Below are positions 55,294-56,085 of a stretch of 64,000 bases of DNA, piece by piece (the stretch's first letter is position 1; each line of letters starts with the position of its first letter). Origin of the DNA: Streptosporangiaceae bacterium (GTDB lineage Bacteria > Actinomycetota > Actinomycetes > Streptosporangiales > Streptosporangiaceae); contig JBEKGC010000014.1 of assembly GCA_050013055.1 (NCBI GenBank), positions 195-64,194 of the forward strand, read 5' to 3'. A program made the translations under genes and the position numbers. The notes beneath the pieces were generated by a model that made no database searches, was not told where the DNA came from, and saw only the letters and a list, made by a program, of their open reading frames with translations.

Positions 55294-56085
55294 TCACGGG
55301 CGCTGGGACCACACCTGCTCGGCCTGGCGGAATTCCTCGGCGGCCCGCGGGCCGTTGCGGAGCAGGTGCTTCCTGAAGCTCTCCCTGTCAACCTGCCGGA
55401 ACTCAAGCTGCTCGGTCTCGTACCTGGCCACCGGGCCTTGCTGGCGGTCCGCCTTGGCGGCCAGATACCGCACCAAGAACGCCTCGACGTTCGCGGCGCT
55501 CGTCCAGTTGGCCTTGTAGGCGACGACCCCGCCGCGGTCGATGACCCAGGTCATGTTGGGCATGCACCCGTACCGCCGGTGCGCGGCGCCGGCCAGGCCG
55601 TCGACCAGGATCGGGCGGCGGATCCCTGTCTCATCCCGCAGCAGCCGCGCGCCGGCCAGCTTGGTCTCGAAACAATCGTGGTGCGGCACGTTTTCCCCGG
55701 GGTGGGCCTCCCGGGTGTAGACGAACACCCAGTTGGCCTCGGGATGCCGGGCAGCCGCGGCGTCTAGCAGAGGACCCTCTGCGGAGCAGTACGGTCAAGT
55801 GAACGAGCCGAACTCCATCACCAGCGGCTTCGACCGCCACAGCTCCGAGAGCGGCTGCCGCGAGCCGTCGTCAAGCCGGACCAGGGTGAAATCCGCGGCA
55901 GCCTCCCCGGCGCTAAAAGAACCGCGGAACGCGATCTCATCTGCCATGTCGCCGTCGGCCGCGACATGGCGATCAAAGTTCACATAGTTGTAACCGGCCG
56001 GGCCCGCTTCATCCGTTCCGCTTTGTGGCATGCTTCCATTTTCGGGCCAAACCGCATTCTCGTCAACACGGTCACAGGGAAACAT
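55294..56085 (-). CDS. Iodothyronine-deiodinase-like thioredoxin-fold protein with in-frame TGA (candidate selenocysteine) at 55795-55797
   Basis: Track ORFs 55795-56085 and 55294-55728 are in the same frame and separated only by one TGA. Read-through gives ...PLVMEFGSFT-[TGA]-PYCSAEGPLLDAAAARHPEANWVFVYTREAHPGEN...RPILVD...MTWVIDRGGVVAYKANW... These blocks parallel the deiodinase blocks PLVLNFGS.TUP, (V/I)Y(I/T).EAH, P(V/I)(V/L)VD and L(Y/W)(I/V)I..G.(I/V).YKG. The 5' start is uncertain (ATG 56085 or an internal Met). Confidence 0.65.
55767..55782 (-). promoter_or_regulatory. SECIS-like hairpin immediately 3' of the in-frame UGA
   Basis: The mRNA reads UGA CCGUACUGCUCC GCAGAG GGUC CUCUGC. 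This is a 6-bp stem with a GGUC tetraloop at nt +22 to +25 counted from the U of UGA. That loop sequence and spacing are the same as in the E. coli fdhF SECIS minihelix (GGUUGCA GGUC UGCACC), quoted from memory. Confidence 0.55.

Follow-up and report, generated by a model that had tools for sequence, protein, structure and literature searches.

An in-frame TGA in a deiodinase-like gene of an actinomycete very probably encodes selenocysteine

On the minus strand of a 64-kb stretch of actinomycete DNA (the window), two open reading frames lie in the same frame with a single TGA between them, which raises the question of whether this locus holds a broken gene, two genes, or one gene in which UGA is decoded as selenocysteine (Sec). 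It is very probably one intact gene whose in-frame TGA encodes Sec, as judged from comparison with related sequences. We further conclude, with high confidence, that 55294-56031 would specify a cytoplasmic thioredoxin-fold oxidoreductase of ~27 kDa from the prokaryotic deiodinase-like selenoprotein family (PF00837, UxxC), with Sec at the TGA. Direct support comes from the conservation of the TGA, selection on and covariation of a downstream hairpin at the RNA level, the loss of this hairpin in a Cys form, purifying selection, and the family and fold of the protein.

One reading frame with a single internal TGA

The minus-strand ORFs at 55795-56085 (96 aa) and 55294-55728 share one frame, and straight translation of 55294-56085 contained a single internal stop, TGA 55795-55797, bearing out the original prediction of two same-frame ORFs split by one TGA. 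Around this codon (asterisk) the joined translation reads ...PLVMEFGSFT*PYCSAEGPLL...WVFVYTREAHPGEN...RPILVD...WVIDRGGVVAYKANW. On every public contig examined that carries the locus, gene callers split it into a 78-aa ORF from ATG 56031 and a 144-aa ORF from an internal GTG, so that of the C-terminal part just 55294-55728 is reported. ATG 56031 is likely the start, as picked by these callers, and yields 245 aa and ~27 kDa (263 aa from the alternative ATG 56085); of the ~29-kDa product initially proposed, the full-length read-through was retained and the size revised to this value. The -10 hexamer of a candidate promoter identified by consensus scan ends 7 nt ahead of ATG 56031, a spacing that would be compatible with a leaderless mRNA. 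Coordinates of all features are given in Table 1.

Table 1. Features of the deiodinase-like locus, in window coordinates
Feature	Position	Strand	Description and basis
Predicted deiodinase-like selenoprotein CDS	55294..56031	-	245 codons including Sec; own stop TGA 55294-55296; read-through translation, T4_deiodinase match, dN/dS < 0.6 on both sides of the TGA
N-terminal part (called as separate 78-aa ORF)	55798..56031	-	Disordered head, two helices and first thioredoxin-fold strands up to FGSFT; AlphaFold2
C-terminal part	55294..55794	-	YTREAHPGE motif, remaining thioredoxin fold, ~60-aa helical extension (YETEQLEFR...NGPRA..EF)
In-frame TGA, putatively read as Sec; first residue of U-P-Y-C	55795..55797	-	Homologous codon TGA in 80/80 loci; Cys in P0002; aligns with Dio3 Sec170
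TGC, Cys at +3 of UxxC, presumed resolving thiol	55786..55788	-	Conserved in relatives
Candidate SECIS hairpin GCAGAG-GGUC-CUCUGC	55767..55782	-	+16..+31 from the U of UGA; perfect 6-bp stem; codon freezing, covariation
Sigma-70-like promoter match TTGACG-17 nt-GAAAAT, putative function	56038..56066	-	Consensus scan only: 1 site versus 0.1 expected

We compared the locus with 80 related genome loci spanning Streptosporangiales, Haloechinothrix, Nitriliruptorales, Acidimicrobiia, Gaiellales, Ktedonobacterales and Dehalococcoidia (Actinomycetota, Chloroflexota and others). The original prediction had proposed checking whether orthologues have TGA or TGC at this codon, and all 80 loci carried TGA. 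The Cys codon at +3 was TGC or TGT in 68/68 main-clade loci, and the residues PYC or PFC occurred in all 80, in line with the UxxC redox motif (FGSFT-U-P-Y-C) that the TGA had been predicted to create. Among the best 120 database homologues, 117 were C-terminal stubs of ~145 aa, which we attribute to callers halting at the TGA, and three were full-length calls: two with W at the site (P0001 and P0010) and one with Cys (P0002, codon TGC), the only Cys form among these best 120 protein matches, with none in the 80 genome loci. At least 40 representatives (E < 1e-18) carried an FGSxTCP-type motif, and all those checked were full-length and 33-43% identical.

Orthologues with degraded downstream frames, which would have marked pseudogenes, were looked for; the frames were intact, and both halves evolve under purifying selection without frameshifts or extra stops, with dN/dS values of 0.20-0.56 upstream and 0.16-0.38 downstream of the TGA at synonymous sites near saturation. 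The clade ranges over soil and saline Actinomycetota (Streptosporangiales, Pseudonocardiaceae/Haloechinothrix, Nitriliruptoria, Acidimicrobiia, Gaiellales) and Chloroflexota, with ~1% Cys forms in the samples. Sec-containing deiodinase-like proteins turned out to be less rare in culture than had been implied, since cultured Haloechinothrix isolates carry members of the family. Carriers of the gene include H. halophila YIM 93223 (NZ_KI632509.1), H. aidingensis YIM 98757 and H. salitolerans JCM 15899, along with Trebonia and Streptosporangiales MAGs.

A conserved hairpin downstream of the TGA

The apical loop of the hairpin (55773-55776) occupies +22 to +25 from the U of UGA, as predicted, with G at +23 and U at +24; the distance of 18 nt past the UGA claimed for the hairpin holds for the start of the loop, the stem beginning after 12 nt (+16). 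The loop of the E. coli fdhF SECIS also reads exactly GGUC. In that element, the upper stem-loop covers nt 15-31 with a bulged U17 and G23/U24 in the loop (PMC8659212), which agrees with the geometry quoted in the original prediction. The hairpin described here resembles it in lying directly 3' of the UGA at +16..+31 and in its G +23 and U +24, but here the 6-bp stem is perfect, with no counterpart of the bulged U17 that matters to SelB of E. coli, and an extended lower helix is not evident in the window.

Codon use across relatives indicates that the hairpin is maintained as RNA. GAG, GGT and CCT were used in 68/68 main-clade loci and GCA in 53/68, against a background use of 10% for GGT, 5% for CCT and 7% for GCA, so that the hairpin is fixed on codons that are otherwise rare. 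Stem variants were compensatory even where they alter the protein (GCU..CAG, Leu to Gln; GUA..CUA, Ala to Val), and 90% of cells were paired in the main-clade hairpin, a level matched by 0/500 shuffles. The distant clade has another hairpin at the same distance, whose register was set by a slide control; there, 75% of cells were paired, four pairs showed double changes, and the covariation score was again matched by 0/500 shuffles. In the TGC orthologue P0002 the corresponding stretch reads GCC GAG AGC CCA CUG and forms no hairpin. The expected covariation between hairpin and TGA was thus found, the hairpin being kept with compensatory changes in TGA forms and destroyed in the lone TGC form, with the test of its loss resting on this one Cys orthologue.

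From the window sequence alone, the hairpin is only suggestive when set against chance: the 64 kb contain 98 perfect hairpins with a 6-bp stem and a 4-nt loop (a GGTC loop occurring only in that of the deiodinase-like gene), and 7 of the 1608 TGA triplets are followed by a perfect hairpin starting at +13..+19. The argument that a random nonsense mutation would not come with such a structure therefore stands through the comparison with 80 other loci, and less so through the window itself. Local folding gave no extra stability over dinucleotide shuffles (z = -0.33), synonymous-codon resampling across 81 loci found the hairpin no more stable than recoded sequences (median rank 0.25), and RNAfold on a 61-nt segment favoured an alternative pairing. 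As stability equalled that of the controls, we dropped it as an argument and relied on codon conservation and covariation instead. Rfam searches of the window at the gathering threshold and of 55650-55900 at E <= 10 returned neither a SECIS nor a tRNA-Sec match.

Protein family, fold and active site

The protein matched the Pfam T4_deiodinase family (PF00837) over residues 58-191 with 35.3 bits (cut-off 27), in line with the family named in the original prediction. Against the NCBIfam model NF038285 (deiodinase_rel) it scored 66.9 bits, where the curated cut-off is 250, in an alignment that covers only profile positions 178-324 of 347; by sequence it is a relative of this equivalog and not a member, and no NCBIfam model captures the deiodinase-like clade.

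The family itself is not new: the gene joins the deiodinase-like UxxC selenoproteins known since 2005, first described from Sargasso Sea metagenomes by Zhang, Fomenko and Gladyshev (PMC1088965) and listed among prokaryotic selenoproteins since (PMC9312934, PMC13188914), with AACY01143874, MBO99264.1 and MFL2763324.1 as published Sargasso or representative sequences. Compared by domain, motif and SECIS features, both have a T4_deiodinase domain with Sec first in UxxC, a bacterial-type SECIS directly after the UGA with a G in a small apical loop, Cys homologues, and a function presumed to be redox. They differ in that the published examples are marine metagenomic sequences whereas the clade described here belongs to high-GC Actinomycetota and Chloroflexota from soil and saline habitats, is nearly devoid of Cys forms (1 in the best 120, 0/80 loci), and has a conserved ~60-aa C-terminal helical extension.

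A phmmer search against the PDB gave mouse Dio3 (4tr3) as the best hit (E = 1.2e-7), with the FGS.T[U/C]P and EAHP motifs aligned and Sec170 of Dio3 facing the TGA position, so that the proposed correspondence to the vertebrate Sec site holds for the closest solved relative. The alignment with 4tr3 contains the Dio3-type pattern of Ser-x-Thr-Sec-Pro, Glu-Ala-His and a downstream His, and E126, H128 and H136 were invariant across 11 sequences. Ser and Thr ahead of the Sec position, the E-A-H motif and the downstream His match active-site residues of Dio3, which makes a deiodinase/peroxiredoxin-like chemistry plausible. With vertebrate deiodinases (Dio3, 4tr3; Dio2, 9h48) the protein shares aligned FGS-x-T-[Sec]-P and (I/T)xEAHP motifs, the following His and a thioredoxin/peroxiredoxin-like fold. 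Identity is only ~21%, however, and the N-terminus (MPQSGTDEAGPAGYNY) is hydrophilic, modelled as disordered and, as read from its residues, without a membrane anchor. Where the bacterial protein has Cys at +3 (UxxC), the Dio3 chain has C-P-P-F; the hairpin lies in the coding region, in contrast to the 3'-UTR SECIS of eukaryotes, and thyroid hormones are not an expected substrate. By function, the protein is not to be classed as a deiodinase.

The AlphaFold2 model showed a thioredoxin fold (pTM 0.72), whose pLDDT stayed below 50 in residues 1-33 and exceeded 90 near the active site, and placed UxxC after strand 88-93 at the start of helix 99-113. Using Foldseek, the best structural matches were CxxC oxidoreductases of the ResA/TlpA/DsbE type (1su9, 4nmu, 1lu4), with a TM-score of ~0.8 over the target and an xxC redox motif likewise at the N-terminus of helix 1; Dio3 was found with E = 4e-8. 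The ResA/TlpA/DsbE proteins share 15-24% identity with the protein and are extracytoplasmic and Cys-based, whereas it would have Sec, carries the deiodinase-type EAHP and has no visible signal peptide. Since the structure search does not separate deiodinase from ResA/TlpA/Prx folds, the chemistry is left undefined by it.

Alternative readings, proposed mechanism and meaning

Among the alternatives, the one that survives best, itself distinctly improbable, is that the gene encodes a selenoprotein by descent in a host that has lost the machinery, so that translation now stops at the UGA. Neither selA, selB, selD nor tRNA-Sec was found in the 64-kb window (Pfam on ~45 ORFs, Rfam), and no Sec machinery lay within 10 kb of the gene on contigs of close relatives (contexts up to ~20 kb). 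Sec use is moreover patchy in Actinomycetota, ~40% of mycobacterial genomes carrying the machinery (PMC13449736). Against such a loss, contigs from different metagenome samples (L081, L085 and L087) carry the locus with an identical coding sequence, and relatives at 77-94% protein identity keep the pair of 78-aa and ~145-aa ORFs in similar gene neighbourhoods, and nothing points to decay. Because the Sec machinery is usually encoded apart from the genes that depend on it, not finding it within 64 kb carries little weight.

Other searches of the surroundings addressed further selenoproteins and linked genes. No second selenoprotein was found among the ~45 Pfam-annotated ORFs of the window, and a GC3-based screen of the window for other in-frame TGAs returned antisense artefacts only, this screen being weak, as its thresholds missed the true site. 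At one related locus (L022), the gene immediately downstream of the orthologue belongs to the GrdB family and has an in-frame TGA itself, which speaks for a Sec-decoding context; an ORF homologous to this downstream gene is present in 14 loci. Clustering of conserved neighbours over the 80 loci identified no universally linked gene. The TauE gene located upstream in the window is not conserved at the other loci.

We consider it very improbable that a standard amino acid (Trp, Cys or Gly) takes the place of Sec at the UGA, whether by read-through or by reassignment of the codon. The two database entries with W at the site would fit this reading, but for one of them (P0001, on a short contig) the DNA has TGA followed by the same hairpin, and the W reflects the caller's choice of genetic code. 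TGA terminates 23 of 38 genes in the window, including the deiodinase-like gene itself, which argues that it is not reassigned. Plain read-through would give no selection for a GGUC hairpin at constant spacing and would leave unexplained why it is missing where the codon is TGC, and a tRNA-Sec gene was detected ~50 nt from the orthologue at one locus, L017 (ARAGORN; Rfam RF01852, 70.4 bits versus 47).

Equally hard to credit is the production of a 78-aa peptide and an independently started C-terminal protein, with the inverted repeat acting as an operator in the DNA or as a regulatory element in the RNA. Paired changes in both arms are what a palindromic protein-binding site would show too, and callers do find a GTG start for the 144-aa ORF; this GTG (55728), however, sits inside the conserved WVFVYTREAHP strand, so that a protein starting there would have a truncated thioredoxin fold and lack the active site, whose motif spans the TGA. 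The 22 codons between the TGA and the GTG are conserved in frame, and the Cys orthologue, which lacks the repeat, is a single uninterrupted ORF. The remaining reading, a thioredoxin-fold pseudogene with a nonsense mutation and a coincidental hairpin in GC-rich sequence, is left with next to no probability: the split calls, the hairpin's unremarkable stability and the occasional chance hairpin after a TGA would be compatible with it, but it is refuted at the family level by the same TGA across several phyla, the rare codons frozen in a hairpin with compensatory stem changes, and the dN/dS of both halves.

If, as is very probable, the TGA encodes Sec, the UGA at 55797-55795 would not be read as a stop, the downstream mRNA hairpin acting as a bacterial SECIS. 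The hairpin would bind the SelB-GTP-Sec-tRNA(Sec) complex and place it at the ribosomal A site, in an organism expected to possess selABCD; Sec would then be inserted and translation would run on to TGA 55294-55296. In the protein, Sec may be the attacking nucleophile of a U-P-Y-C centre acting on an oxidised or electrophilic substrate, after which it would form a selenenylsulfide with the Cys at +3, and a thiol system of the thioredoxin or mycothiol-dependent reductase type may recycle the centre. A bolder view, which we regard as unlikely though not far-fetched, takes the clade as an almost obligately Sec-dependent branch of deiodinase-like proteins, its GGUC SECIS as a usable marker of unrecognised Sec decoding, and its active site as a possible sign of reductive dehalogenation or other non-peroxide chemistry.

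This gene leaves the current view of selenoprotein families as it was. Deiodinase-like genes of this kind are systematically miscalled, and a signature combining a profile, the TGA and the GGUC hairpin would correct hundreds of entries. The hairpin offers a clear natural case of a SECIS overriding the choice of codon, and even of amino acid, within a coding region, and three Haloechinothrix species provide cultured hosts for a first study of a deiodinase-like selenoprotein. The gene probably marks its actinomycete host as a Sec-decoding organism; as the clade goes unseen by standard annotation, the frozen GGUC SECIS could, if the bolder view is right, mark Sec decoding in actinomycete lineages that are not counted as selenium users.

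The TGA codon and the extent of the gene

The ORF listing placed 55795..56085 and 55294..55728 (minus strand) in one common frame, and 55294-56142 translated straight through contained one internal stop, the TGA at 55795-55797 (...SKPLVMEFGSFT-TGA-PYCSAEGPLL...WVFVYTREAHPGEN...), bearing out the original prediction of two same-frame ORFs parted by a single TGA. In the gene span then given, 55294-56085, the frame and TGA stood and the start was corrected to ATG 56031, the likely start codon (245 aa), which is favoured because gene callers picked it on public contigs carrying the locus and a promoter match ends just upstream of it. 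The promoter position points to a leaderless mRNA and to the shorter product. Since 23 of 38 window genes, the deiodinase-like gene among them, end in TGA as an ordinary stop, the codon has not been reassigned.

Features of the window and of two related loci
Feature	Coordinates	Strand	Remarks
UnbV_ASPIC/FG-GAP gene and three DUF1702 paralogues	3598-5568, 6730-7848, 15587-16777, 16925-17947	+ (all)	
CMD, DUF899 and MDMPI_N/DinB genes	9219-9839 (+), 21538-22674 (-), 27586-28380 (-), 14640-15452 (-), 34550-35269 (+)		
Polyketide synthase (PKS)	41438-47290	+	iterative KS-AT-KR-DH, 1950 aa
4HBT thioesterase	47287-47763	+	follows PKS
Phosphoketolase (XFP) and phosphate acetyltransferase (PTA) genes	51828-55263	+	converge on deiodinase-like gene
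Hairpin GCAGAG-GGUC-CUCUGC	55782..55767	-	perfect; stem start +16, loop +22..+25 from U of UGA
Sigma-70-like promoter match	56038-56066	-	TTGACG-17 nt-GAAAAT; -10 hexamer ends 7 nt before ATG 56031
TauE/SafE-family membrane protein gene	56143-57213	-	directly upstream of deiodinase-like gene, same strand
tRNA-Sec, anticodon TCA	L017:2852-2947	-	RF01852; divergent to deiodinase-like gene
GrdB-family gene	L022:~3760-4711	+	Pfam GRDB, 43.9 bits; directly downstream of deiodinase-like gene

Conservation of the TGA and of the downstream hairpin

A search of 5.8 billion proteins yielded 637 homologues. Among the best 120 of these, 117 were C-terminal fragments (144 to about 170 aa) starting past the TGA position and 3 were full-length, with W at the TGA site in two and Cys in one (P0002). 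The contig of one W protein (P0001) was retrieved and reads TGA at the site, so that its W reflects the caller's choice of genetic code. Scanning one genome per species gave 224 relatives, from which 80 loci were kept, found in a Streptosporangiales MAG, Trebonia, three cultured Haloechinothrix species, Nitriliruptorales, Acidimicrobiia, Gaiellales, Ktedonobacterales, Dehalococcoidia and others. The proposed orthologue comparison returned TGA at the homologous codon in 80/80 kept loci, and Cys (TGC) in P0002. When the window gene was compared with these loci, synonymous sites were near saturation (pS 0.3-0.7) and dN/dS was 0.20-0.56 for the part before the TGA and 0.16-0.38 for the part after it, so both halves are kept as coding sequence.

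The sequence and loop position of the predicted hairpin were confirmed; the 18-nt spacing assigned to it applies to the loop and not to the stem, whose first base comes 12 nt past the UGA. The window holds 98 perfect hairpins of 6 bp with a 4-nt loop, and one at comparable distance follows 7 of its 1608 TGA triplets, with a GGTC loop only at TGA 55795-55797. Fold stability exceeded neither dinucleotide shuffles (z = -0.33) nor synonymous recodings of the same peptide. Within the window alone, the evidence for a hairpin beyond chance is only suggestive, and the case leans on comparison with other loci.

In the 68 loci encoding xEGPLL after PYC, the hairpin codons were GAG, GGT and CCT (68/68 each) and GCA (53/68); elsewhere in these genes the shares of GGT, CCT and GCA within their synonymous families were 10%, 5% and 7%, and codons flanking the hairpin varied freely. 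Variants keep pairing, through a G-U pair for GCG..CUG, at the cost of a Leu-to-Gln change for GCU..CAG (L008, L044), and at the cost of an Ala-to-Val change and a rare Leu codon for GUA..CUA (L032, L063, L065). On the 80-sequence alignment the helix was 90% paired, which was matched by 0/500 shuffles, and all slid registers were far lower. In the 13 most distant loci (protein identity 39-46%) the residues at this site differ, and another hairpin has its centre at the same distance (e.g. GCGCUGG-CGGCG-CCAGCGC or GAUGG-CGUGC-CCAUC); it is 75% paired, with double changes at four pairs and a covariation score reached by 0/500 shuffles. P0002, the only Cys orthologue with DNA retrieved, carries GCC GAG AGC CCA CUG in the hairpin region and has lost both complementarity and rare codons, so the expected co-variation of hairpin and TGA held in this one orthologue (n=1). 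These alignments show selection on the hairpin at the RNA level.

In three distant loci (L075, L076, L077) neither conserved register fits at about +10..+45 after the TGA, and stem-loops are seemingly shifted or more distal (e.g. AUCGCC-UGUAC-GGCGAU in L076, GCGAUGG-AUU-CCAUCGC in L077).

Protein family and predicted chemistry

Membership of the deiodinase family was supported by Pfam (T4_deiodinase, 35.3 bits, cut-off 27), with AhpC-TSA and Redoxin slightly under their own cut-offs. The sole NCBIfam match, NF038285 (deiodinase_rel), reached 66.9 bits where its cut-off is 250, so no curated NCBIfam model captures the clade. The closest solved relative by sequence was the mouse Dio3 catalytic core (4tr3, E = 1.2e-7), in which FGSCT-[Sec170, Cys in crystal]-P aligned with FGSFT-U-P, placing the TGA at the vertebrate Sec position as predicted, IYIEEAHP with VYTREAHP, and QH containing His219 with HH; the aligned positions include active-site residues of Dio3, His219 among them. 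Searching 1.84 billion representatives yielded 1304 relatives, many full-length, 33-43% identical and with Cys at the aligned position (FGSxTCP..), a pattern that typically marks a genuine Sec site.

In an AlphaFold2 model (pTM 0.72; pLDDT 72.6 on average and above 90 near the active site) the N-terminus was disordered, and the thioredoxin fold was accompanied by two C-terminal helices. Foldseek retrieved ResA/TlpA/DsbE-type oxidoreductases (TM about 0.8), peroxiredoxins, Dio3 and Dio2 with similar E-values; the modelled fold is thioredoxin-like but does not by itself single out one chemistry. The window protein has a UxxC motif and neither signal peptide nor membrane anchor, which together with redox neighbours in one relative points to a putative cytoplasmic selenol/thiol oxidoreductase; thyroid-hormone deiodination is not expected. 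In that relative, from another metagenome (L094:1-9934 and 10478-20444), the gene is surrounded by genes for glutaredoxin, CMD, OsmC and two pyridine-nucleotide disulfide oxidoreductases, with MerR/HMA/P-type ATPase metal-resistance genes also nearby, which hints weakly at a function in oxidative or metal stress.

Genomic context and relation to known systems

No tRNA genes or Rfam matches were found in the window, and SelA, SelB and SelD were found neither among its about 45 ORFs (Pfam annotation) nor on related contigs, where surroundings of the gene spanning up to about 20 kb were covered. Indirect support for a link to Sec decoding comes from an Egibacteraceae MAG (L017), in which the orthologue has a tRNA-Sec gene about 50 nt upstream (ARAGORN; Rfam RF01852, 70.4 bits, gathering score 47). 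The GrdB-family gene of a Nitriliruptoraceae locus (L022) has its own in-frame TGA (FLVAT-TGA-PVCHGS), making two selenoprotein genes in tandem; a homologous downstream ORF occurs in 14 loci in all, the TGA having been read in L022 only.

The TauE and PTA neighbours are missing in three relatives of 77-88% identity (L091-L093), so this linkage is not conserved; the same PKS lies near the gene in these three. Together with the 4HBT thioesterase, UnbV_ASPIC/FG-GAP and DUF1702 genes, we take this PKS to resemble an enediyne-type cassette. The window also encodes redox/thiol proteins without Sec, namely two CMD (AhpD-like), one DUF899 thioredoxin-like and two mycothiol-type MDMPI_N/DinB proteins, a set that fits an actinomycete with mycothiol chemistry.

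Sec- and Cys-containing bacterial deiodinase-like proteins with bacterial SECIS elements were described from the Sargasso Sea (Zhang, Fomenko and Gladyshev, 2005; PMC1088965), and reviews of 2022 and 2026 give "Deiodinase-like protein, PF00837, UxxC" as a prokaryotic selenoprotein family (PMC9312934, PMC13188914). The window gene agrees with this family in all testable features; the family is already known and the gene is no surprise to specialists. In position and in G23/U24 the hairpin matches the E. coli upper SECIS stem-loop (nt 15-31; PMC8659212), as predicted, but it lacks the bulged U17 of that element. Compared with the known family, the clade seems distinguished by its hosts (high-GC Actinomycetota and Chloroflexota of soil and saline habitats), almost exclusive Sec, an extremely conserved SECIS, a C-terminal extension and having been overlooked by annotation pipelines.

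The comparative TGA, hairpin and family evidence supports the selenoprotein interpretation, and the window gene is very probably a genuine SECIS-dependent selenoprotein gene, the remaining doubt being mainly whether this organism still retains the Sec machinery. The gene is of use for annotation and as a way into an uncharacterised enzyme family.
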